NCBI GenBank assembly: GCA_963796285.1
Contig: CAWCKW010000012.1
Span: forward strand, 1,312,001-1,376,000
Reading direction: 5' to 3'
DNA length: 64,000 nucleotides
Source of the DNA: Nitrospirota bacterium
GTDB taxonomy: Bacteria; Nitrospirota; UBA9217
Numbering within the stretch: position 1 is the stretch's first letter; each line of letters starts with the position of its first letter. The translations under genes were made by a program, and so were the position numbers. A model generated the notes under the pieces. It had not been told where the DNA came from. It saw only the letters and a program-made list of their open reading frames with translations, and did no database searches. Positions 2,416 to 47,639 of the stretch are shown piece by piece.

Positions 2416-3657
2416 GTGAAACAGCAAACCACAACTAATCTCCGCCATATTCTCAGCCTGCCGGTCATCGTAGCCTCACTCGGCTACTTCGTCGATATTT
2501 ACGACCTGGTGCTCTTCAGCATCGTCCGGGTGCCGAGCCTGAGATCGCTCGGACTTTCCGGGCAGGACCTGATCGACAACGGCGTGTTTCTTCTCAATAT
2601 GCAGATGGCGGGCATGCTCATCGGCGGCATTCTCTGGGGCGTCCTGGGTGACCGGAAGGGCCGGCTGAAGATCATGTTCGGCTCGATCTTCCTGTACTCC
2701 ATCGCGAACATCGCGAACGGGATGGCCACGTCCCTTCCCGCCTACGCGGCCCTGCGCTTCATCGCCGGCATCGGGCTGGCCGGCGAGCTCGGGGCGGGGA
2801 TCACCCTCGTGTCCGAGGTCCTGCATACCAGCATCCGGGGGTACGGCACGATGCTCGTGGCCTCCGTGGGCGTCTCGGGCGCCATCCTCGCGAACATCAT
2901 CGCCAATACCTATGACTGGCGGAACGCCTTCATCATCGGCGGCGTACTCGGCCTCGTGCTGCTCATCACCCGGATCAGCGTGGCCGAGTCCGGCATGTTC
3001 CGGGCCATGAACAGGAAGGCCGGGGTCAGCAGGGGGAACCTGCTTGCCCTCTTTTCCGAACGGAAGCGTTTCCTCCGCTATCTCAACTCGATCCTGATCG
3101 GCGTCCCGATCTGGTTCGTCGTCGCTGTCCTGATCACCTTCTCGCCGGAGTTCGCCAAATCATTCGGGACGACCGGACCGGTCTCCGCCGGAAACGCGGT
3201 CATGTTCTGCTACCTGGGGCTGGTCTTCGGCGATCTTTCGAGCGGCCTGCTGAGCCAGGTCCTGAAGAGCAGGAAAAAGGTGGTCTTGCTGTTCATGCTC
3301 CTGAGCCTTGTTGCCATCGGCATCTACTTCCTGCAGGGGAGCAGGAGCCCGGAATTCTTTTACGGGGTGTGCCTCGTACTCGGATTTGCCAGCGGCTACT
3401 GGGCCATCTTCGTGACCATTGCCGCCGAGCAGTTCGGCACGAACCTGCGCGCGACGGTCGCGACAACCGTGCCGAACTTCGTGCGCGGGATGGTGGTCCC
3501 CATCACGCTTCTATTCCAGTTCTTTCGCCAATACTTCGGCCTTGAGGGCGGCGCTCTTGCTGTCGGGGCCATCTGCGTGGTTGCAGGCTTCTTTGCGCTT
3601 GCCTCCCTGGAAGAGACGTTTCATAAGGACCTGGATTATTATGAGGAGTTTCCCTGA
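2416..3657 (+). CDS. MFS transporter
   Basis: About 12 hydrophobic segments; GVLGDRKGR motif A; GTG start after GGAG. The ORF extension to 2269 reads through the REP element. Confidence 0.85.
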   Translation: MKQQTTTNLRHILSLPVIVASLGYFVDIYDLVLFSIVRVPSLRSLGLSGQDLIDNGVFLLNMQMAGMLIGGILWGVLGDRKGRLKIMFGSIFLYSIANIANGMATSLPAYAALRFIAGIGLAGELGAGITLVSEVLHTSIRGYGTMLVASVGVSGAILANIIANTYDWRNAFIIGGVLGLVLLITRISVAESGMFRAMNRKAGVSRGNLLALFSERKRFLRYLNSILIGVPIWFVVAVLITFSPEFAKSFGTTGPVSAGNAVMFCYLGLVFGDLSSGLLSQVLKSRKKVVLLFMLLSLVAIGIYFLQGSRSPEFFYGVCLVLGFASGYWAIFVTIAAEQFGTNLRATVATTVPNFVRGMVVPITLLFQFFRQYFGLEGGALAVGAICVVAGFFALASLEETFHKDLDYYEEFP

Positions 3658-3680
3658 CACAGGACAAGAGCTTAAAATCG

Positions 3681-3804
3681 TTTCTCGCAAAGACGCAAAG
3701 GTCGCAAAGGAAAGCATTACTAAACAACTAAAGCAAAGCATTAGCCTTTGTCTTAAAGCAAAGGATTTAGCCCTTCTTTGCGTACTTTGCGTCTTTGCGA
3801 GAAA
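3681..3804. mobile_element. Gene-less (MITE-like) palindromic element with CGCAAAG tandem arms
   Basis: Left TTTCTCGCAAAGACGCAAAGGTCGCAAAGGAAAGC, right CTTTGCGTACTTTGCGTCTTTGCGAGAAA; same arms as those around the GxxExxY gene. Confidence 0.75.
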
Positions 3805-3837
3805 TAGCCTTAGATTCGACGCTTTCTTACAATTCTT

Positions 3838-3866
3838 TTGACTCTTCCCTCCATTCCCTTTATAAT
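3838..3866 (+). promoter_or_regulatory. sigma70 promoter for gpsA
   Basis: TTGACT-17 nt-TATAAT, about 10 nt upstream of the ATG at 3876. Confidence 0.7.
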
Positions 3867-3875
3867 TCACGAACT

Positions 3876-4878
3876 ATGACTGATAAGATCGGTGTGATCG
3901 GCGCAGGGGCATGGGGCACGGCCCTTGCTATGCTTCTTGCCGACAAAGGGTACGACGTGACCCTCTGGATGTATGAAAAGGACCTTGCCGAAGAGACGGC
4001 TCGCACGAGAGAGAACCGCGTCTATCTCCCCGGGTTTCCCTTGACCGGCTCCATCCAGGTGACCTCTGCTCTTGAAACCGCTGTCAGGAACAAGCCGGTC
4101 ATTCTGTCCGTCGTCCCCTCCCACACGGTCCGTACTGTAGCAAAACAGTTTGCCCCCTTTCTATCGGAGAACGCCATCATCATCAGCGCTTCCAAGGGCA
4201 TTGAGACCGACACTCTCATGCCGCTCTCAGAGGTGTTCAAGGACATCCTGCCCGAAAGGGTTTCATGACCGGCTCTGCTTTCTTTCCGGCCCGAGCTTTG
4301 CGAAAGAGGTCGCCCAGAAGATGCCCACCGCTGTTGCCCTCGCTTCGTACGACCCGGCAGTGGGCAAGAAGGCCCAGGAGGTCTTCAGCAACGCCTACTT
4401 CCGTGTCTATACGAATCCCGATGTCCTCGGCGTGGAGCTCGCGGGTGCGCTCAAGAACGTCGTGGCCATTGCTGCGGGCGTGCTCGAAGGCATGGGCTTC
4501 GGATATAACACCATGGCCGCCCTGCTCACCCGCGGGCTCGCGGAAATGGCTCGCCTCGGCGTGGCCATGGGAGGAGAACTCCAAACCTTCTCCGGCCTTG
4601 CAGGCATGGGAGATCTGGTCCTTACTTGTACAGGAGGCCTGTCGAGGAACCGAACCCTTGGATCGCGGCTCGGCAAAGGCGAGAAACTGGACGATATCAT
4701 GCGAGGGACAAAGACCGTGGCCGAAGGCGTCAAGACCGCCCGGGCCGCGCGTGACCTAGCACAAAAATACAATATCGCAATGCCGATCGTCGAGGAGGTC
4801 TATCAGCTCCTCTACGAAGGCAAGGACCCGAAGCTCGCCGTGAAGGACCTGATGAACCGTGAGCTCAGAGCAGAGTGA
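3876..4878 (+). CDS. gpsA: NAD(P)H-dependent glycerol-3-phosphate dehydrogenase (frameshift near 4260, probable sequencing error)
   Basis: GAGAWGTALA, SASKGIE, LSGPSFA, GALKNVVAIAAG, GDLVLTC, SRNR motifs across two frames. Confidence 0.9.
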
Positions 4879-4906
4879 TCGTTTAGCGGGAATACGATGA
4901 CGGACA

Positions 4907-5752
4907 ATGAATACATCAAAACTCACCAAGCTTCTCCAAAGCGTTAGGTCCGGCAAGATCGATGTCGAAACCGCTCTCAACCGGCTCAAGCACCTGCCCT
5001 TCGAGGACGTGACATACGCCAACATCGACCATCATCGCCACTTGCGCCACGGCATGCCCGAGGTCATCTACTGCGAAGGGAAGACCCTGGAGCAGGTCGT
5101 CGGCATCACGAGGCGCATGCTCAAGGCCGGGAGCGACATCCTCGCCACCCGCGCGTCGGAAGCGGTCTATAAAGCAGTTAAGAAACTCGATCGCCGCGCG
5201 GTATATCACAAAGCCTCACGCGCCATCGTGGTACAGGACAAGAAGAAGACACTGACCAGCGGTATTGTGCTCGTCCTGACCGCAGGCACATCGGATATCC
5301 CCGTTGCCGAGGAGGCCGCCGTGACCGCGGGGATGCTCGGCAGCACTGTACAGACCGTATACGACGTGGGCGTGGCAGGGATCCACCGCATCCTGAGCAA
5401 ACGGGAAACGCTCGACTCCGCCAGGGTGATCGTCGTGGTAGCGGGCATGGACGGCGCGCTCCCATCGGTCGTGGGCGGGCTCGTGGACAAACCAGTGATC
5501 GCCGTTCCCACGAGCGTCGGCTACGGCGCCGGGTTCAAGGGACTGGCCCCGCTCCTCACCATGCTCAACTCCTGCGCGTCAGGCATCGCGGTCATGAACA
5601 TCGACAACGGCTTCGGCGCCGGAGTGCTGGCGCACAGGATAAATCTATTGGGAGAAAATAATCAAGAAGCGCCCCCTCCTTCGAAATCGGGGAGAATCCC
5701 GGGAAATGAAAAAGGATGGATCAGCGTTAAGAGAATTTCAGGTAATCGCTGA
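4907..5752 (+). CDS. larB: Nickel-pincer cofactor biosynthesis protein LarB (PurE-like)
   Basis: IDHHRHLRHGMPEVIYCEGKT, TAGTSDIPVAEEA, DVGVAGIHR, AGMDGALPSVV, NIDNGFGA. Confidence 0.9.
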   Translation: MNTSKLTKLLQSVRSGKIDVETALNRLKHLPFEDVTYANIDHHRHLRHGMPEVIYCEGKTLEQVVGITRRMLKAGSDILATRASEAVYKAVKKLDRRAVYHKASRAIVVQDKKKTLTSGIVLVLTAGTSDIPVAEEAAVTAGMLGSTVQTVYDVGVAGIHRILSKRETLDSARVIVVVAGMDGALPSVVGGLVDKPVIAVPTSVGYGAGFKGLAPLLTMLNSCASGIAVMNIDNGFGAGVLAHRINLLGENNQEAPPPSKSGRIPGNEKGWISVKRISGNR

Positions 5753-5849
5753 CCAATTCAATCAGCATACGCTTTACTGGAACAGATTGCATGACTGAGC
5801 ACCGTTTGCACAGTGCAAACGCGTCCCACCATTAGGAGGCCATCCCTGC

Positions 5850-8047
5850 ATGGAAATCGAGTTACTTATTCCGATTCTGGCTCTCGGTACTCAGCTAGTG
5901 TCGGTTTATTTTGCGATTCGATTGTTGCGATATGCCAAAATGCGGGTTATTGCGGTCGTATTTATTCTCGCGGTCTCTCTCATGGCGTTGCGCCGGATGT
6001 TTTCACTGGTTCCGAATTATGTTCCGAGCGACATGACAGGAGGCGCGTTCTCGGATACCGTCGCGCTTTTCATTTCACTCCTGATCCTGTACGTGGTCCG
6101 CTCGCTTGGCCGTATTTTCATGTCGGAGGAGGCGAATATGAATGCCGCGCTGTCCGCTGAAAAGCGCTATCGAACATTGTTCAACCAATCTCCGGACGGC
6201 GTCCTGCTGATTAATGCTAAGGGCGACATTGTTGATTTCAACAATGAAGTCAACCGTCAACTTGGATACACGCGCGAAGAATTCAGCAAACTGCGGATAT
6301 CGGACATCGATCCCGTTGAAAATGAGGCTGACGTCGGGTCACGTCTGGCGAAAGTCCTGAAGGTCGGTAAGGATGACTTTGAGGTAAAGCACAAAACCAA
6401 GCAGGGTGAGATACGGGATGTTCTTGTTATTGTCCAGCCCCTCGATTTGTCCGGTCAAACATTCTTCCACACTATCTGGCGCGATGTCACAGAGAGCAAG
6501 AAAGCAGAGGAGGAGCTAAAAAGGAACGAAATATTCATCAGGAGCATTCTTGAAAGTATAGATGAGGGGTTTGTCGTCGTAGGCAGGGATTATCGGATCA
6601 TTTCGGCGAACAAGGCTTATTGCGATCATGCCGGGATTACAATGGAAAATGCAATTGGCCAATATTGCCATGTCGTGTCCCACCACAGCGACAAACCATG
6701 TTTTGAAGCCGGGGAGCAGTGCCCCGTGAAGTATACCTTTGATACGGGAGAACCTGCCCAATTTTTACACATACATTACGATAAACACGGGAACCCCTCG
6801 TTCGTTGATACAAAGGCGTATGCCATGCGGGATGCAGCGGGCACTGTGACCGCCGCAATCGAGATAGTAATGGACGTCACTGATAGAAAAAAATTGGAGG
6901 ACCAGTACCGCCAAGCCCAGAAAATGGAGGCGATCGGTCAGCTTGCCGGCGGTGTGGCTCACGATTTCAACAACATTCTGTCCGCGATCATCGGCTATGG
7001 CCACCTTTCCCTGATGAAACTGCGAGACGATGATCCGGTGAGGCACTTTATCGACCAGATTCTGCAATCTTCGGACCGCGCAGCCGTTTTGACGCAGAGC
7101 CTGCTCGCATTCAGCAGAAAGCAGCCCCTGAAAAAAGAGCTTAATGATTTGAACGCGGTGATCAAGAATTTCGAGAAATTCCTTCTCCGTCTGCTGCGCG
7201 AGGACATCGAAATGAAGATCCGGTACTCGGACGACCAGCCCGTGGTCATGGCGGATAGTGGGCAGGTCGAGCAAGTGATCATGAATCTCGCTTCGAACGC
7301 ACGCGATGCCATGCCGAACAATGGGAAGCTGACTATCGATACCAGTGTCACTAATATGGACGAGGCGTTCATCCGGTTGAACGGTTACGGGAAGCTGGGA
7401 GAATACGCCGTAATGTCGGTGTCGGATACTGGCGTCGGAATGAACAAAGAGACCCAAAAGAAAATTTTCGAGCCGTTCTTCACGACCAAGGAAGTGGGGA
7501 AAGGGACCGGTCTCGGACTGGCCACGGTGTATGGAATAGTGAAAGCGCACGATGGATTCATCAATGTGTATTCCGAGCCGGGGAAAGGGACAACCTTTCA
7601 TGTTTATTTCCCCCTTGCTCGAACAAAGAATGCAGTGCCTAGATGTTGCGGAGCGAACCCCGGTCCAAGCTCAAGGGCGGCAGCGAAACGATCCTGCTTG
7701 CCGAGGACGACGCGAGTCTCCGCGAAATGACGTCGGCCATTCTCCGAGACATGGGTTACACGGTGATTGATGCGGAGGACGGAAATAGGGCGGTTGTCCG
7801 GTTTAAAGAGAACCGCGCCGCGATCAAACTCGTAATATTGGACGCTGTCATGCCGAAGAAGAACGGTTTGGAAGCGTATCGGGAGATCAGTGCTCTCAGC
7901 CCGAAGGTCCGCTGCATTTTCATGAGCGGCTATACCGGAGAAGTATTCGCCGAGGACGGCCCGCCGGCCGGTACGGAGTTTTTACCTAAGCCTCTTCAAC
8001 CCCGGATGCTTTTGTCCAAGGTCAGGGAAATGCTTGACCGGGAGTAG
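5850..8047 (+). CDS. Membrane hybrid sensor histidine kinase (2 PAS, HisKA, HATPase, C-terminal receiver; frameshift near 7640)
   Basis: AGGVAHDFNN H-box, [24 protein letters not shown]; receiver ILLAEDD..LVILDAVMP in the next frame. Confidence 0.85.
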
Positions 8048-8242
8048 AAAGGGGCAACGGGCAAGGAATGAGTTCCTCGCTTTCAACTCATCGCGCGTGC
8101 AACCTTCATCCCGAATTTGCTGGTCGTTTCAAACAATGAGAACTGCACAATTGCAGGTATATGCGGTAAAGTTCATGCGCGCAGAAGGATGCATGTTTTC
8201 AGGTTGAAATATGACTATTGATGGCAACCAAATAATAAACCT

Positions 8243-9436
8243 ATGACCCTCGCTTACTTCGACTGCTTTTCCGGGATATCCGGCGACATGACCCTCGGCG
8301 CGCTTGTTGACGCGGGTGTCTCCATCGACGCCCTGCGCGCCGAGCTGGCCAGGCTCAATCTCCCCGGCTACGAGCTCAAGGCAGAAAAGGTCAAACGCTC
8401 CGGCATTGCCGCGACCAAGGTCCATGTCATCATCGACCAGAAGGACCAGAACGCGCGCCATCTTGCCGACATTTTGAGCATTATTGAAGCCTCCACCCTT
8501 TCTCCAACCGTGAAGGAGAAAAGCAGCCGGATATTTACACGCCTTGCTGATGCGGAGGCAAAGGTGCACGGCACAACACCCGACAAGGTCCACTTCCATG
8601 AGGTCGGCGCTGTGGACTCCATCGTGGACAATGTCGGGGCTGTTATCGGACTGGAGCTGCTGGGAATCAAGCGGGTCATGGCATCGGCGATCAATGTGGG
8701 TTCAGGCATGGTCAAAACCTCTCACGGCATGCTTCCGGTACCCGCACCCGCCACGGCGGAGCTGCTTACCAACATCCCCTTTTATCAATCGTCGTCACAA
8801 TTCGAGCTCACCACACCGACCGGCGCGGTCATCATCAGCACTCTCGCTTCCTCCTTCGGCCCCATGCCGGCGATGAAGGTCGAGCGGGTCGCCTATGGCG
8901 CGGGCGACAAGGATTTCCCGGGTCAGCCGAATGTCCTGAGGCTCATGATCGGACAGCCCATAGCGGGTTATGAAGAAGACACGTCCATCGTCATCGAGAC
9001 GAACATCGACGACATGAGCCCGCAGGTCTATGACTACCTCATCGAGAAGCTCATGCAGCAGGGCGCGCAGGACGTTTATCTCACACCCATTATCATGAAA
9101 AAAGGAAGACCCGCGATCCTGCTCTCGGTGCTTACTGATAAGACAAAGACAGATGCCGTGCTCGATACGATCTTCCGGGAAACGACCAGCATCGGCGTCC
9201 GTATCCATGAAGTTGGCAGAAAGAAGCTCACGCGGGACATCCGGGAAGTCGATACGGTTTATGGCAAGATCAGAATAAAGATAAGCAGGCGGGCTGATGA
9301 AGTAGTGACGATAACACCGGAGTATGAGGACTGCAGAAGGATCGCGGAAAAAATGCAGATACCTTTAAAGCAAATCATGGAAGAAGCGAAAGACATGTTT
9401 TCTCGCAAAGACGCAAAGGGCGCAAAGGAAAGCTAA
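8243..9436 (+). CDS. larC: Nickel insertion protein LarC
   Basis: YFDCFSGISGDMTLGAL, VHFHEVGAVDS, PVPAPAT, ELTTPTGA, ETNIDDMSPQ, MKKGRP, PEYEDC. Confidence 0.92.
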   Translation: MTLAYFDCFSGISGDMTLGALVDAGVSIDALRAELARLNLPGYELKAEKVKRSGIAATKVHVIIDQKDQNARHLADILSIIEASTLSPTVKEKSSRIFTRLADAEAKVHGTTPDKVHFHEVGAVDSIVDNVGAVIGLELLGIKRVMASAINVGSGMVKTSHGMLPVPAPATAELLTNIPFYQSSSQFELTTPTGAVIISTLASSFGPMPAMKVERVAYGAGDKDFPGQPNVLRLMIGQPIAGYEEDTSIVIETNIDDMSPQVYDYLIEKLMQQGAQDVYLTPIIMKKGRPAILLSVLTDKTKTDAVLDTIFRETTSIGVRIHEVGRKKLTRDIREVDTVYGKIRIKISRRADEVVTITPEYEDCRRIAEKMQIPLKQIMEEAKDMFSRKDAKGAKES

Positions 9437-9880
9437 AAGTATTGGGCTGTATGACTGAAAACGAAATAGCTAAAATCGTTGTTGATCTGTGTGTTAAAAT
9501 TCATAAGACTCTTGGTCCGGGGCTCTTGGAGTCTGTTTATGAAGCAGCTCTCGTGTACGAGCTTAAAAAACTCGGCATTCCTGTGGAGCAACAAATTGAC
9601 ATTCCCGTGGAATATGATCATTTATATTTGGACATTGGGTTCAGGGCAGATTTGATAATCGACAACAAAGTCATCGTGGAACTAAAATCAGTTGAGACAT
9701 TACTTGCTGTTCATAAAAAACAGCTTCTGACCTATTTAAAGCTTTCAAAATATAAGCTTGGCCTTCTGGCCAATTTTAATGTCGACCTAATGAAAGATGG
9801 CATTACCCGTTTCGCGAATGGCCTTTGATTTTAATCCGGAATCACGCCTTTCTTTGCGTCCTTTGCGTCTTTGCGAGAGA
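9399..9880. mobile_element. Putative autonomous element: GxxExxY gene between ~35-bp inverted CGCAAAG-tandem arms
   Basis: Left arm 9399-9433 and right arm 9846-9880 are near-perfect reverse complements; interior is AT-rich relative to neighbours. Confidence 0.7.
9451..9828 (+). CDS. GxxExxY protein (PD-(D/E)XK nuclease-like)
   Basis: LGPGLLESVYE signature, FRADLII..KVIVELKSV, HKKQLLTYLK..GLLANFN. Confidence 0.92.
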   Translation: MTENEIAKIVVDLCVKIHKTLGPGLLESVYEAALVYELKKLGIPVEQQIDIPVEYDHLYLDIGFRADLIIDNKVIVELKSVETLLAVHKKQLLTYLKLSKYKLGLLANFNVDLMKDGITRFANGL

Positions 9881-9921
9881 TGCTTTTCGTGTTGACTTTG
9901 TAATTGTTGAGCGACAAACTT

Positions 9922-11634
9922 ATGAGAACAATACGCATTTCCATGGCCCAGATCAACCCTATTGTCGGCGACCTCGCGGGCAACCGCGATAAGATCATCG
10001 ACGCTATCAAGAGCGCGAAAAAGCTCGGTGCCGACATTGTCGCGCTGCCTGAGCTTGCCGTGACCGGCTATCCGCCCGAGGACCTGATCCTGAAGCCCCG
10101 GTTCGTGAAGGACAATATCAAGACGCTCACAGATATTCAGCAGGCGACGAGGGGGATCGTCGCGATCGTCGGATTCGTTGACAGCAACCACGATTGCCTC
10201 TTCAATGCCGCCGCAGTGCTGGCCAACGGAGAGCATATCTACACCTATCGCAAGATATTCCTGCCGAACTATGGGGTGTTCGATGAACACCGGTACTTCA
10301 GCCCGGGAGGACGCTATCCCGTCTTTACCGTCAAAGGCGTCGGCGTGGGCGTGAACATCTGCGAGGATATCTGGTATGAAGAAGGGCCTGCGCGCGTCCA
10401 GGCATTGGCAGGCGCCGAAGTGATCGTCAATATCAACGCGTCTCCCTACCATAAAGGCAAGGGGAAAGAGCGCCTGAAAATGCTTTCCCAACGCGCGAAA
10501 GAGAATGACATCGTCATCTCCTACACCAATACCGTAGGCGGTCAGGACGAGCTCGTATTTGACGGCCAGAGCATGGTACTGGACCGGAAAGGAAACGTGG
10601 TCGCCCTGGGGAAACAGTTCGAGGAAGACATGCTGACCGAGGACATTGCTGTCCCCGGGGACAGGATCCCGTTTCCCGAGGACCGGGAGCAGTTCAGCGA
10701 CTTCATGGACTACGTCTCCCTCTCCGGACGACCGAAAGGGAAAAAGAAGCCGCTTCCCGCCGTACGCTCGGCCAAACCACTCGCGGTGTGCGAGGAGGTG
10801 TACCGCGCCCTTGTGCTCGGGACCGGGGATTATATGCGCAAGAACGGCTTCAAGTCCGCGGTCATCGGTCTGTCGGGCGGCATCGATTCATCCCTCGTTG
10901 CAGCTGTTGCGGTGGCAGCCATGGGGAAAGAGAACGTGACCGGCGTGTTCATGCCGTCGCAGTACAGCTCGAACGAGAGCTGCGAAGACGCGTATGATCT
11001 TGCCCATAACCTCGGCATCAGGATCCTGGAGATCCCCGTCAACCAGACCTTTGAATCGTATCTGACAACGCTCCGCGGCGTCTTCGCGAGGACAAAGATA
11101 GACGTGACCGAAGAGAACCTCCAGGCCAGGATACGGGGAAACATCCTCATGGCCCTCTCGAACAAGTTCGGCTGGCTCGTGCTCACGACGGGCAACAAGA
11201 GCGAGATGTCCGTGGGTTATGCAACGCTATACGGCGACATGGCCGGCGGTTTTGCCGTGATCAAGGACGTGCCCAAGACCCTGGTCTACGAAGTGTCACG
11301 ATGCGTGAACAAGCTTGCGGGGAAGACCGTGATCCCGAAGCGGGTCATGACCAAAGCCCCGACCGCGGAACTTCGGCCGAACCAGAAGGACAGCGATTCC
11401 CTGCCTCTTTATTCCGTTCTTGACCCGATCCTGAAGGCCTATGTGGAGGATGACAAGGATCGGAACGAGATCATCAAGATGGGGTTTGACCCCAGGACCG
11501 TGGAGCGCGTGGTCCGGCTCGTGGACTCCAGTGAGTACAAGCGCCGCCAGGCGCCGCCAGGCGTCAAGATAACTCAACGGGGATTGGGAAAAGACCGAAG
11601 GTTCCCGATAACGAATAGATATAAAAGTTCTTAA
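9922..11634 (+). CDS. nadE: Glutamine-dependent NAD+ synthetase
   Basis: N-terminal nitrilase domain (PELAVTGYPPEDL, ICEDIW), GLSGGIDS, ENLQARIRG, TTGNKSE, EYKRRQ. Confidence 0.95.
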   Translation: MRTIRISMAQINPIVGDLAGNRDKIIDAIKSAKKLGADIVALPELAVTGYPPEDLILKPRFVKDNIKTLTDIQQATRGIVAIVGFVDSNHDCLFNAAAVLANGEHIYTYRKIFLPNYGVFDEHRYFSPGGRYPVFTVKGVGVGVNICEDIWYEEGPARVQALAGAEVIVNINASPYHKGKGKERLKMLSQRAKENDIVISYTNTVGGQDELVFDGQSMVLDRKGNVVALGKQFEEDMLTEDIAVPGDRIPFPEDREQFSDFMDYVSLSGRPKGKKKPLPAVRSAKPLAVCEEVYRALVLGTGDYMRKNGFKSAVIGLSGGIDSSLVAAVAVAAMGKENVTGVFMPSQYSSNESCEDAYDLAHNLGIRILEIPVNQTFESYLTTLRGVFARTKIDVTEENLQARIRGNILMALSNKFGWLVLTTGNKSEMSVGYATLYGDMAGGFAVIKDVPKTLVYEVSRCVNKLAGKTVIPKRVMTKAPTAELRPNQKDSDSLPLYSVLDPILKAYVEDDKDRNEIIKMGFDPRTVERVVRLVDSSEYKRRQAPPGVKITQRGLGKDRRFPITNRYKSS

Positions 11635-11689
11635 ATCCGGTTTCGAGAGGCGCAGAAGTCAGAGAAAAGCATAAAGCTGACTTTTCGAT

Positions 11690-12225
11690 TAGAAGCATTC
11701 TGCATAGGCGTAATGGGGAGATATCTCACGAAATAGGCTGGCAGATGTAAACGAGAAAAGCACTGGTGAATCTATGCCGACTTCGCACAAGTGCTGATCA
11801 AAATCGCCAGGGAGTTGTAAGCAAAAGAAATTTTTAGCCTGGAGTTGAAGAATACCGTCTACGCTTTCGATTAAACAACCATCGATCTCTGTCTTTCGGT
11901 TTTTCCCTGAGCAAAGGTACGCAAAGCGAAAGCTGCGGTGAAGCTTCATACGCTATTGGATCTCCAGGGTAAGAGCCCTGTTATGATCAGCATTACCAGT
12001 GGAAAAATAGGCGATGTCAGCGCGCTCGACGATCTCATCTTCGAAGCCGGGGCGATCTATATTTTCGACCGGGGTTACATCGATTTCTCCCGGCTCTATC
12101 GGATTCATCAATCTCTTGCGTTCTTCGTAACTCGCGCGAAGAGCGATTTTGTTTTCAAACGTCTCTACTCTCAACCGGTGGACAAATCGACCGGTGTACG
12201 GTCAGACCAGATCATTAACAACTAA
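11690..12225 (+). mobile_element. IS4-family transposase remnant (internal stops and frameshifts, both ends truncated)
   Basis: Fragments ISRN.LA..NE, IYADFAQVLI, TTIDLCLSVFP, KAAVKLHTLLDL.G, GAIYIFDRGYIDF, FFVTRAK, STGVRSDQ. Confidence 0.8.
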
Positions 12226-12331
12226 GGCTTTTCTTAAAAATTCTTTTCTTAGCGTACTTTGCGTCTTTGCGAGAGACGGATTTTGATTTTTAATTTTTAC
12301 GACCTTTCAGCCTCTGCGAGAGATAGGTCTC

Positions 12332-13215
12332 ATGACATCTGGTGTTCTCTACATAGTCGCCACCCCCATCGGGAACCTCGAGGACATCACCCTCAGGGCG
12401 ATCCGCGTACTGAAGGAAGCCGACCTCGTCGCCGCCGAGGACACCGTCATACCAGGCACCTGCTCGACCGGTATCAGATAGAGACACAGCTCACCAGCTA
12501 CCACGACCACAACAAGGAAGAAAAGGCCCCGGTCCTCGTTGCGAGAATGCTCGAAGGAAAGAACGTGGCCCTCGTGTCCGACGCGGGGACTCCCGGCATC
12601 TCGGACCCCGGTTATTTCCTGATCAACCTCGCCATAGACCAAAAAATTGCCGTTGTCCCCATCCCCGGGGCAACCGCTGCGATTGCCGCGCTTTCGGTCT
12701 CGGGAATACCGACCGACCGATTTGTCTTTGAAGGTTTTCTACCGGCAAAACATCTGGCCCGTCTCAAGCGTTTGCAGGAACTTGCCAAGGAAGAACGCAC
12801 CATTGTCTTTTATGAAGCGCCACACAAGATAATCAGGGCAGTCGAAGACATGGTCGAGGTCTTCGGCGATCGCCGCATCGTGATAACCCGCGAGCTGACC
12901 AAGATCCATGAAGAGACAATACGGGGAACATTTTCGGAATGCCTCAAACGCCTTCACGAGGGGACCATCAAAGGCGAGTTCACCGTCATTGTCCACGGCG
13001 CAACGACTGGGATCCTGGCACAGGATATCGACACTGCCGAGTATCTTAAAAATCTCATCCTCCACCGCGGCCTGAGCAGAAAAGAAGCTGTTTCAGTTGC
13101 GGCGGAGGAACTCGGGTTACCAAAGAAGGAAGTATATAAGGAAAGTCTGAAGCTGGAGAACACGCCCGGTGCGAATGCAAAAGGCAATGAAGAGAGAGAA
13201 GGGAAGATATCGTGA
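12332..13215 (+). CDS. rsmI: 16S rRNA C1402 2'-O-methyltransferase (frameshift near 12445)
   Basis: [43 protein letters not shown]. Confidence 0.92.
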
Positions 13216-45860: not shown

Positions 45861-47639
45861 CTACATCCTCTTGAACATCCGCATTATTTCGACTATGGAA
45901 AATCGAACAACCGTCGGCCTGCCGTGCGGACAGGTATGCGGCATGCGGCATTTGAATAGATCGGCAAGCAGCTGTTCCATCTCCTGCCGTTCAAGATGGC
46001 GATGCACCTTGATCGCGGGATGGCAGGCCATCACGCTCAGCATCTCATCCCGGACTTTCTCCATTTTCCCGCTTTTACCGTGGACATTCACTTCGTCGAG
46101 GATATCAAGCAGCAATTGCCTGTAGTCAGCACCCATCAGCAGTACCGGTACGGCTTTGATCACGAACGTATTGTTCCCGAAATCTTCAATCAGGAATCCG
46201 AGTTTGGAAAGCTCCGGCAGATATGCAGCAAGCACCACACTCTGCGCAGGCCCGAGTTCAACCTGGTCCGGCACCAGGAGGTCCTGAACAGGAACTCGCC
46301 CGGTCCCGAACTGGTCCTGCAGCTTTTCGAACAGAACCCGCTCGTGAGCCGCATGCTGGTCGACGATCGCCATCCCGTCCTGCGACTGCGCGATGATGAA
46401 GGAGTCGTGGATCTGAGCAAGGGGGTGAAGCATTTCGGAATGCGGAATGCGGATTGCGGATTGATAGAGTGAGCCGTTTTGAGAACCAATCTCTGCACCA
46501 TTGCTCTCCTCCGCCCATTCCTGCAAAGAGAGAGGATTCCTCATCCCCCCTTTCCATTGCGGGGAGATGGGATATTCCGCATTCCGCATTCCGAAATCCG
46601 CAATTGCTTCTCTCACCCCATCAGCACGCGTCGCCGCCGAAGAAACATTCATCCCCCGCAATCCTTCCCTAATCACGTCCCGGACCAGGTCATGCAACTG
46701 AGACTGGTTGCGGAAGCGGACCTCGGCCTTGGCAGGATGAACATTTACGTCCACGAGCGCTGGATCGATCTCAATAAATATGAACGCAACAGGATGCCGA
46801 TCGCGCATAAGCATATCGCCATAAGCGCTGTAAAGCGCGTGAGTGAGTGACGGGTTCTTGACCGCGCGACGGTTCACGAAGAAGTCCTGGTATGTTTTGT
46901 CCGCGCGTGTAGAACCAGGGCGGCCGATGAGACCATGGACATGGACGCTGTCCCTGCCGCCGGAGAACTCGATCAGGTTTTCCGCTATTGCTCCTCCGGA
47001 AAGCTGGAACACCCGCTCCTTGATGCTCAATGAGGGAGGAAGATCGAGGACACTCTTTTTGTTATGGGTCAGTCGGAAATGAATGGCAGGATGCGCCATG
47101 ACCTGGCGCGATACCGCTGTCAGGATATGCGAAAACTCGGTCGCCGGGCTCTTCAGGAATTTGCGACGGGCCGGGGTATTGTAAAAAAGATGTCCGATCT
47201 CCAGGGTGGTACCCTGCGGGGCTGCGGCGTCGGATATGGACTTGACAATTCCGCCCTCAATCTCTATAAGTGCGCCTGACGTCGCGCCCTTCATCGCGCT
47301 CAATAGCCGTACGTGGGACACGGAAGCGATGCTGGAGAGTGCCTCTCCCCGGAAGCCCATGGTACGAATGGATTCCAGGTCCGCGTCGTCTGCAATCTTG
47401 CTCGTGGCGTGGCGCATGAACGCTGTCCGGGCGTCCTCTTTCGACATGCCGCTGCCGTTGTCTGTAATACGAATGAGCCGCCTGCCGGCCTCCTCGATAT
47501 CGATGAATATTTCGGTCGCACCAGCGTCGATCGAGTTCTCGATCAGTTCCTTGACCACGGAGGCGGGCCGCTCCACCACCTCTCCCGCGGCGATCTTGTT
47601 GATGACGTGGTCGGGTAGGATTTTTATAATAGAGGACAT
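45861..47639 (-). CDS. mutL: DNA mismatch repair endonuclease MutL
   Basis: NKIAAGEVVERPASVVKEL.EN, GFRGEAL.SI, DVNVHP.K, DQHAAHER, CPHGRP. Confidence 0.97.
   Translation of the reverse strand: MSSIIKILPDHVINKIAAGEVVERPASVVKELIENSIDAGATEIFIDIEEAGRRLIRITDNGSGMSKEDARTAFMRHATSKIADDADLESIRTMGFRGEALSSIASVSHVRLLSAMKGATSGALIEIEGGIVKSISDAAAPQGTTLEIGHLFYNTPARRKFLKSPATEFSHILTAVSRQVMAHPAIHFRLTHNKKSVLDLPPSLSIKERVFQLSGGAIAENLIEFSGGRDSVHVHGLIGRPGSTRADKTYQDFFVNRRAVKNPSLTHALYSAYGDMLMRDRHPVAFIFIEIDPALVDVNVHPAKAEVRFRNQSQLHDLVRDVIREGLRGMNVSSAATRADGVREAIADFGMRNAEYPISPQWKGGMRNPLSLQEWAEESNGAEIGSQNGSLYQSAIRIPHSEMLHPLAQIHDSFIIAQSQDGMAIVDQHAAHERVLFEKLQDQFGTGRVPVQDLLVPDQVELGPAQSVVLAAYLPELSKLGFLIEDFGNNTFVIKAVPVLLMGADYRQLLLDILDEVNVHGKSGKMEKVRDEMLSVMACHPAIKVHRHLERQEMEQLLADLFKCRMPHTCPHGRPTVVRFSIVEIMRMFKRM
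46433..46604. repeat. Heptamer palindromic element (TGCGGAA/TTCCGCA) read in frame within the mutL linker
   Basis: TTTCGGAATGCGGAATGCGGATTGCGGATT (46433-46462) and ATTCCGCATTCCGCATTCCGAAATCCGCAAT (46574-46604). Confidence 0.8.

Follow-up and report, generated by a model that had tools for sequence, protein, structure and literature searches.

The 64,000-nucleotide (nt) stretch of a Nitrospirota bacterium genome analysed here, hereafter the window (contig CAWCKW010000012.1, positions 1,312,001 to 1,376,000), carries between the host genes larC and nadE a compact cassette, in which a gene of the GxxExxY family is enclosed by two inverted arms, each an array of three copies of the 7-nt word CGCAAAG. 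This gene-plus-arms design is widespread and appears to be undescribed. Periodic inverted arms enclose most GxxExxY genes in related genomes and in other phyla, and palindromes made of the same words, with no gene between their arms, are dispersed over the genome. We give about even chances to the reading that nuclease and repeats form a widespread selfish partnership, similar in its logic to the REPIN-RAYT systems, in which doublets of repetitive extragenic palindromic (REP) sequences, the REPINs, accompany a REP-associated tyrosine transposase, the RAYT (accessible parts of PMC3116915 and PMC3337134). Below, G000 denotes the genome carrying the window, G001 to G017 and so on denote related genomes, and C-numbers denote contigs.

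The original prediction, made from the sequence letters, had placed a GxxExxY gene between inverted arms of three CGCAAAG units. This layout was recovered by a repeat finder, which returned two inverted arms of 33 nt each, 91% complementary and separated by 412 nt (Table 1). The word-doublet pattern CGCAAAGNNGCAAAG occurs five times in the window compared to 0.14 expected, a count reached in none of 100 shuffles. As had also been predicted, the left arm supplies the end of larC: it encodes the last 11 codons, and the LarC product terminates in FSRKDAKGAKES, followed by the stop codon. LarC orthologues agree as far as ...MEEAK and are divergent beyond. The unit is richer in AT than its neighbours, again in line with the prediction. 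The GC (guanine plus cytosine) content is 40.7% for the cassette, 55.8% for larC and 57.5% for nadE, and GC at third codon positions is 0.40, 0.70 and 0.76, respectively.

Arms around other GxxExxY genes were counted at a score of 25 or more, in flanks delimited from the conserved domain, since open reading frames (ORFs) can run into the arms. With ORF-based flanks, arms were found in 22 of 28 genes and missed in six, whose ORFs read into their own arms; with domain-based flanks, all 27 genes of a first set had arms. The GxxExxY family is present in 23 of 41 related genomes, among them 21 of the 24 that belong to the same bacterial family, with two to ten matches in each, many of them fragmentary or containing stops. 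From the 72 entries of this larger set one was removed for too short a flank and four for lack of an intact domain by the filter used. Arms were present at 62 of the 67 intact genes that remained (23 related genomes). Displaced pairs of flanks from the same loci scored 15.3 on average (95th percentile 19, maximum 29, n = 101). A scan of one genome per species with a single peptide pattern yielded 588 relatives. The best 80 of these 588 loci, which cover at least 12 phyla and encode proteins 48–66% identical to the window protein, were taken as a cross-phylum set, and 78 had enough flank. Arms were detected at 68 of the 78 genes, compared to 2 of 146 displaced controls. Most GxxExxY genes thus carry periodic inverted arms, a check that the original prediction had called for. 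At loci L195, L207 and L222 each flank holds a complete hairpin instead of a single arm. The GC content of the gene lies below that of its flanks at 73 of the 80 cross-phylum loci and at 27 of 27 family loci, with a mean gap of 9–14 points, and still follows the GC content of the host (r = 0.77). No published account of a gene-plus-arms design was found in the literature searched, whose coverage ended short of subscription journals.

The window copy is one of three GxxExxY loci of G000, the other two being on C12 and C1 (Table 1). On C12 the cassette spans positions 332565-333037. Compared with relatives, its first ~10 codons are out of frame with the remainder; an internal TTG or GTG may serve as the start of the domain frame, which is open. 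Just upstream lies an array of heptamers of the CAGGAGC/CAGAAGT type. The 8-nt unit GACAGGAT/AACAGGAT that flanks the broken C1 locus also flanks an intact GxxExxY gene in G017 (L074). In G016 a GxxExxY gene (L058) is flanked by a 25-nt perfect inverted repeat similar to a small repeat with GTAACTATTCAGC.

Outside these loci, the same words build gene-less palindromes. G000 contains 114 near-matches to the word doublet and 58 plus/minus arm pairs within 1.5 kb, from which about 45 gene-less palindromes with loops of 23–109 bp were recognised. Their loops fall into sub-families, so that the whole hairpin is the repeated unit; an identical loop was found at two sites, in both G000 and G004 at site A and in G004 at site B. 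The empty copy predicted at 3681–3804 does have the periodic arms, and its two strands fold as single-stranded DNA at −38 and −40 kcal/mol, each with z = −8.5. An arm at 12248–12276, which had been described as solo, is present but is not quite solo: a degenerate partner lies at the other side of a DDE-transposase fragment (Table 1). In other species the spacer between nadE and rsmI that holds it is 100–230 bp long, with palindromes of other families.

The arms of G000 fall into two subfamilies, each with its words and spacers tightly linked. The haplotype CTCGCAAAG-A-CGCAAAG is present in 26 exact copies and CGCGCAAAG-C-CGCAAAG in 19, with recombinant forms seen twice each. The window cassette has the first haplotype on both arms, and the arms of the C12 gene copy are one or two mismatches from the second. 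The prediction that gene-less copies share the arms of the cassette thus holds for a population of about 45, in two subfamilies matching two gene copies. Arm pairs of G000 separated by longer gaps (189–360 bp) contain no GxxExxY remnant (best E 0.053), but nested repeats instead. At G000:C12:1825011-1825286 the loop of a CGCAAAG palindrome contains a nested small repeat, with non-periodic inverted ends that include GTAACTATTCAGC. In metagenome contigs (the best run held 0.40 of sampled words, the single RNA run 0.05) depth was 190–430 at the arms, about 30 at the flanks and 5.7 at the gene; apparent joints at the arms came from gene-less copies elsewhere. Contigs of the RNA run covered the arms and parts of the flanks only.

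Table 1. Coordinates of the cassette, of related elements and of the adjoining host gene; unprefixed positions refer to the window, C-numbers to other parts of G000.
Feature	Position	Strand	Remarks
Whole cassette: left arm, GxxExxY gene, right arm	9399..9880	+	0.48 kb, 40.7% GC
Left arm, three CGCAAAG words (9404-9410, 9412-9418, 9421-9427)	9401..9433	.	spacers 1-2 nt
GxxExxY gene, 125 aa, minimal PD-(D/E)XK nuclease	9451..9828	+	PF13366 and TIGR04256 matches
Right arm, three CTTTGCG words (9852-9858, 9861-9867, 9869-9875)	9846..9878	.	
Gene-less palindrome, arms TCTCGCAAAG-A-CGCAAAG-GT-CGCAAAG, 66-nt loop	3681..3804	.	same subfamily as cassette
Disrupted palindrome, nadE-rsmI spacer: degenerate left arm 11910-11935, right arm 12248-12276	11910..12276	.	
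DDE-transposase fragment between arms of disrupted palindrome	11938..12222	+	PF01609, 6.8e-9
Second GxxExxY gene of G000	C12:332629-332970		enclosed by CGCAAAG/CGCGAAG arms
Third GxxExxY locus of G000	C1:83660-84130		TGA-broken, two frames; flanked by inverted 8-nt arrays GACAGGAT/AACAGGAT
larC (nickel-insertion protein), host gene; 3' end and stop codon inside left arm	8243..9436	+	PF01969, 5.7e-154

Word-doublet counts were compared between family genomes (25) with and without an intact gene of the corresponding arm type. Median counts with and without the gene were 68 and 14.5 for CGCAAAG (one-sided p 0.0002), 21.5 and 5 for CACGAAG (0.0012) and 22.5 and 20 for CGCAGAG (0.32); since the 25 genomes are kin, these p-values overstate the case. 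Three family genomes without a GxxExxY match contain 1, 2 and 14 doublets of CGCAAAG and CACGAAG combined, and genomes from other families of the phylum contain 0 to 7. The gene is absent from these three and from 15 of 16 other-family genomes, where few or no doublets of the three words were found.

The words follow a family consensus of C-R-C-R-R-A-G or close, with one or two unconstrained spacer bases between them. Besides the window form CGCAAAG, the types CGCAGAG, CGCGAAG, CGCGGAG, CACAAAG, CACAGAG, CACGAAG and CACGGAG were found, among others, and in a deep protein clade the last position is T or A (CACGGAT, CACTGAT, CGCAGAT, CACGGAA). Placed on a maximum-likelihood protein tree (27 sequences), the word labels require 12 changes (minimum 9); shuffled labels averaged 18.6, and none of 200 shuffles came as low. 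Since relatives share labels, this result amounts to clustering, not co-evolution. To that extent the predicted co-variation between arm words and protein phylogeny is borne out.

Across 62 gene-bearing units the two arms mismatch in 50 of 951 word columns (5.3%) and in 57 of 152 spacer columns (37.5%). Transition mismatches compatible with G-U pairing in the sense RNA number 40, those of the opposite kind 41. In the 31 gene-less palindromes of clear CGCAAAG type, among the 45 gene-less ones in G000, 40 word columns deviate, 34 in one arm only, 4 differently in the two arms, and 2 with compensation. This pattern, with neither a wobble nor a compensatory signature, argues for constraint on word sequence rather than on base pairing, and the words look like putative protein-binding sites on DNA. 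It lends no support to the claim that the protein recognises the arms as a folded RNA stem; the arms may be recognised as a folded single-stranded DNA stem (cruciform or hairpin), which is compatible with the data.

Comparison of orthologous sites revealed concerted switches of words and a turnover of repeats at fixed slots. At 3681–3804 all six words of G000 are CGCAAAG, while five of five orthologous palindromes of the same genus have CGCAGAG or CGCGGAG; loop and flanks align, and the flanking DNA is 92% identical to that of G004. At C13:348740 three CGCAAAG words of G000 correspond to three CGCGAAG words in the sister G004, with identical spacers (G, GT). The switch is partial at site F, and at sites A, B and C the words are the same in G000 and G004. 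Site A (C12:1438131-1438204) is a hybrid palindrome with CGCAGAG in the left arm and CTTTGCG, that is CGCAAAG, in the right arm, as it is in G004; at its orthologue in G006 (C41, L117) a CACGAAG-type palindrome is nested in a CGCAGAG-type loop. In the nadE–rsmI spacer and at sites B, H and I the repeat family differs between almost all species, with 7-nt families among those present. In G003 and G005 site A is a 92-bp spacer without a periodic palindrome, and site H of G003 likewise lacks one. Such palindrome-free spacers differ by replacement rather than by clean insertion, so that no boundary or target duplication can be defined.

The protein encoded at 9451–9828 matched PF13366 PDDEXK_3 (3.5e-40, 137.4 bits, cut-off 22) and TIGR04256 GxxExxY (2.3e-41, 140.8 bits, cut-off 35) over the full length of both models. 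These were its only Pfam and NCBIfam matches, with no transposase family among them. Thirteen residues are invariant across 21 aligned sequences, including G24, E27 and Y30 of the name motif and D67, E77, K79 and Q91, and the window protein retains all seven of these, E27, D67, E77, K79 and Q91 forming the E-D-ExK-Q core. With its AlphaFold2 model (predicted local distance difference test score 94.4), Foldseek placed Cas4 proteins at the top (4ic1, E 6.8e-4, and next 4r5q), with lambda-type exonucleases and Hjc resolvases after them. In a wide structural search the BpuSI nuclease domain and CinB scored Z 7.9 and Cas4 scored Z 7.3; no match reached Z 8, which indicates a common fold only. A sequence search of solved structures returned nothing below E 0.079, the PADLOC defence-system models gave no family at E up to 0.01, and PHROG gave a weak match to a Cas-associated family (1.2e-5). 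The protein thus resembles the Cas4/RecB/lambda-exonuclease branch in its best fold matches, in the E-D-ExK-Q...Y core and in the PHROG match. Cas4, however, carries a four-cysteine cluster, whereas the window protein, of ~125 aa, has a single cysteine and hence no such cluster, and the window region read provides no cas context. Prediction of a homodimer from two copies scored 0.00, which counts neither for nor against. Mutual information between protein columns and word positions was highest for residues 1–9, 20 and 58–63, a ranking uncontrolled for phylogeny from which we draw no claim.

Judging from codon substitutions, intact GxxExxY genes are under purifying selection, with ratios of nonsynonymous to synonymous rates of 0.10 (G005 and G006) and 0.02 (a second pair), and the protein is functional yet dispensable. 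Its dispensability shows in frameshifts in two of the six gene copies at the larC–nadE junction and in the many fragments among the matches of relatives. The accessible part of a survey of the PD-(D/E)XK superfamily (PMC3424549) gives the function of GxxExxY as unknown.

At the larC–nadE junction the gene is intact in G000, in the same-genus genomes G005 and G006 and in G013 of another genus; it has an N-terminal frameshift in G001 and several frameshifts in G004, both of the same genus. The arm word is CGCAAAG in G000 and G013 and CGCAGAG in the other four. At the same junction, G003 and G007 carry gene-less palindromes, built of CACGGAG and of GAAGTTNN, respectively, G008 has an unrelated ORF, and in G002 the contig breaks. 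Its presence in six genomes of two genera makes the cassette an old, syntenic resident rather than a recent insertion. Its transcript probably originates at larC, and the arms would pair in that RNA as a stem of ~35 bp. Between G000 and G013 identity is 76% for GxxExxY, 72% for LarC and 66% for NadE; between G000 and G005 or G006 it is 63–65%, 79–87% and 83–85%, respectively. In the protein tree G000 groups with G013, and the arm word goes with the gene. Gene plus arms, as compared in sequence, do not follow the phylogeny of the flanking genes. Synonymous sites between G000 and G013 are saturated (proportion of synonymous differences, pS, 0.83), so the transfer was not recent. The original prediction had named fixed synteny with vertical inheritance as evidence against itself; this holds in part, as synteny was found in two genera, even though the relationships of cassette and flanks disagree.

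From these comparisons we infer a route of binding, cleavage and copying for the nuclease-plus-repeat partnership. On DNA, each protomer of the GxxExxY protein would read a single word, be it in the cassette's own arms or in gene-less copies, and the protein would then cut at the word arrays. Repair templated by other copies would copy and homogenise arms across the genome; occasional insertion into hairpin loops or intergenic slots would spread them as well. In this way one whole cassette could also take the place of another at a fixed site.

Several observations weigh against this reading. The proposed tie between protein and arms rests on sequence comparison, and the related genomes are not independent, which makes the evidence from tree and counts look stronger than it is. 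The window copy is syntenic across two genera, the flanks of the 45 gene-less copies show no direct repeat that would mark a target-site duplication, and neither larC–nadE nor any of eight other orthologous sites offered a clean empty site. Among the 25 family genomes the number of CGCAGAG doublets shows no association with an intact gene of that arm type, and 51–66 doublets are still present in genomes whose only CGCAAAG-armed gene is broken. Genes for a four-helix protein, with no nuclease fold, carry analogous arrays (see below), which means that arrays need no nuclease as such. Finally, the strong RNA stem formed by the arms and the lack of a promoter-like site upstream keep an RNA-level role live.

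Four-helix (PF05635) genes have six matches in G000, with periodic inverted arms in their flanks, and 23 of 29 such genes in relatives score 25 or more; where a period is clear, 16 have one of 7 nt and 3 have one of 8 nt. For GxxExxY genes the arm period, by a crude measure, is 8, 9, 10 and 11 nt in 14, 10, 5 and 1 loci, never 7, and is unclear in 32. A de novo survey of G000 gave 46 inverted tandem-array pairs, including the 7-nt families GGATTGC, AATTGGA, GGGTCAA and CAGGAGT; in the window itself, a Tandem Repeats Finder survey detected inverted 7-nt arrays of the GGAATGC/GGATTGC type at 46432-46463 and 46574-46602, around a 110-bp loop. One four-helix gene (L147, G000:C12:142703-143165) lies within inverted 7-nt arrays that include GACAGAT, as in the Coxiella burnetii 23S rRNA intervening sequence (IVS). 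That IVS, as described in the accessible part of PMC4990558, has 428 nt, an S23p ORF, a 28-bp terminal stem within which RNase III cuts, and three tandem GACAGAT heptamers; the same source mentions an older proposal that the IVS ORF helps mobility, and its discussion calls the origin of IVSs obscure since the 1990s. Four-helix genes with 7-nt arrays including GACAGAT make the classical IVS look like one placement of a general cassette design. By analogy, the GxxExxY cassette looks like its nuclease-bearing sister, and the comparison suggests that the 23S rRNA IVS is a special case of a much wider design. Of the 241 loci examined, none lies in or beside a 23S rRNA gene or shows similarity to 23S.

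An IVS-like account of the cassette itself, in which host RNase III would cut a long double-stranded RNA stem, excise the cassette from the larC–nadE transcript (in other genomes from rRNA) and control the gene, with the job of the nuclease unrelated to the arms, is in our judgement unlikely. It draws on the RNA properties of the cassette and on the Coxiella precedent, with its stem, heptamers and RNase III cuts, together with the four-helix genes described above. As RNA (491 nt) the cassette has a minimum free energy of −156 kcal/mol (z −7.0), with the arms as a closing stem of ~35 bp. No promoter-like site was found upstream of the GxxExxY gene, the sole candidate in 9250–10000 being inside the ORF (1.5 expected by chance), and the outer part of the right arm plus TTTT forms a terminator-like hairpin at 9865–9883. 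Intergenic palindromes, too, lie between co-directional genes in 34 of 40 cases compared to 66% of all spacers, a count that rests on crude ORF calls (150 aa or more); five more lie inside an ORF call. However, a stem kept for pairing fits poorly with the mismatched spacer columns, with two compensated word deviations in 40 and with the lack of a coding-strand excess of G-U-compatible mismatches, and a plain stem would have no use for periodic words, or for words that go with the protein clade. No 23S rRNA gene adjoins any of the 241 loci, and an Rfam scan of window positions 3000–13000 gave no match at E up to 1.

Less likely again is a domesticated pair that benefits the host, in which the palindromes would act as terminators, mRNA stabilisers or insulators where neighbouring genes are co-directional, and the GxxExxY protein, inherited vertically, would maintain or regulate them, a view already argued for RAYTs. 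The shared site in two genera, the strong purifying selection and the excess of palindromes between co-directional genes would fit this account, as would the palindromes that fill entire spacers and the retention of some palindrome in the slot by every species. REPIN-RAYT systems, moreover, are mostly vertically inherited and long-lived according to the accessible text of bioRxiv 10.1101/2022.05.22.493013. A useful pair would hardly be broken as often as the genes are at larC–nadE and elsewhere, or be missing, with few or no doublets, from three family and 15 of 16 other-family genomes. The repeat family in a given slot is not conserved, the genes remain AT-rich relative to their hosts, and the identity of 48–66% between proteins of different phyla suggests horizontal flow.

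The core of the original prediction, a tie between protein and arms on which the gene-less copies depend, agrees with the data. We see a slim chance for its strong form, an actively jumping autonomous transposon or homing element with a 480-bp unit and gene-less copies as its deletion derivatives. Terminal inverted arms shared with gene-less copies, two to ten gene copies per related genome, an AT-rich unit and a cassette phylogeny in conflict with the flanks are what such an element would show. Against it stand the missing target-site duplication, synteny across genera with saturated synonymous divergence of the other-genus copy, and gene-less loops that hold no gene remnant (best E at least 0.05); a clean empty site did not turn up either, and G003, G007 and G008 have other sequence at the larC–nadE junction. 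A mere coincidence of place, the gene having landed in a palindrome at an insertion hot spot without a functional tie to the arms, is barely credible, since arms accompany GxxExxY genes far more often than controls, words cluster on the protein tree and gene arms match dispersed subfamilies, even though loops also hold other DNA (the DDE-transposase fragment, nested palindromes, another small repeat).

The nuclease-plus-repeat partnership can be carried further, to a proposal that we regard as tentative and possible rather than probable. The 7-nt words would be an address code, each GxxExxY clade reading its own; a palindrome population would switch its word together with the resident nuclease, here from CGCAGAG to CGCAAAG, and cassettes would overwrite one another at fixed slots. 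Together with the S23p cassettes and their heptamer arrays, the classical 23S rRNA IVSs among them, they would form a super-class of word-array cassettes. If true, these would be a kind of prokaryotic selfish DNA that works with no transposase or recombinase family known so far. Should each protomer read one word, they would be a modular natural DNA-address scheme and a new route to concerted evolution of bacterial repeats. GxxExxY, a large cross-phylum family, gains through a near-obligate tie a concrete candidate partner in the arms and dispersed repeats. For annotation, the arms create contig breaks and spurious ORF extensions (the larC tail, N- and C-terminal extensions of GxxExxY). New here are the link of 7-nt arrays to four-helix genes, the concerted word switches, the lack of an RNA-type signature in the arms and the two subfamilies matching two gene copies.

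Compared with known systems, the cassette is close to the S23p IVS in size (428–580 bp here, 428 nt there), in its single ORF of ~120 aa within arms of ~30 nt that close a stem, and in tandem words in the arm, of 7 nt there and in arrays with a period of 8–10 nt here; the four-helix genes of G000 and relatives have such arms outside rRNA (23 of 29 loci). It differs in that its ORF belongs to PF13366, unrelated to PF05635, whose genes are separate loci in G000, in a word period that is never 7, and in its location between larC and nadE rather than in a 23S rRNA helix. PD-(D/E)XK homing endonucleases occur in group I introns and are, likewise, small nucleases of the same superfamily inside selfish DNA that they would propagate. 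Here, however, the gene sits in neither an intron nor an intein but between word arrays, and no pair of filled and empty alleles was found. Miniature inverted-repeat transposable elements and their parent insertion sequences show the same sharing of ends between short gene-less hairpins and a gene-bearing unit, and the same nesting, but in our case the flanks gave no sign of a target-site duplication, a known transposase family is absent and the loops are not remnants of gene deletion.

The closest parallel to the proposed partnership is provided by REPIN-RAYT: an enzyme gene flanked by inverted copies of a short repeat, the repeat dispersed as gene-less hairpin doublets in intergenic DNA (~45 here), discrete subfamilies tied to particular gene copies, and long-term residence with largely vertical inheritance. 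A REP consists of one short, imperfect palindrome and has a conserved tetranucleotide at its 5' end, whereas each arm described here repeats a non-palindromic 7-nt word in tandem, with free spacers in between. The enzyme is a PD-(D/E)XK nuclease and not an HUH/Y1 (IS200/IS605-like) transposase, and the related genomes hold two to ten gene copies with several word types.

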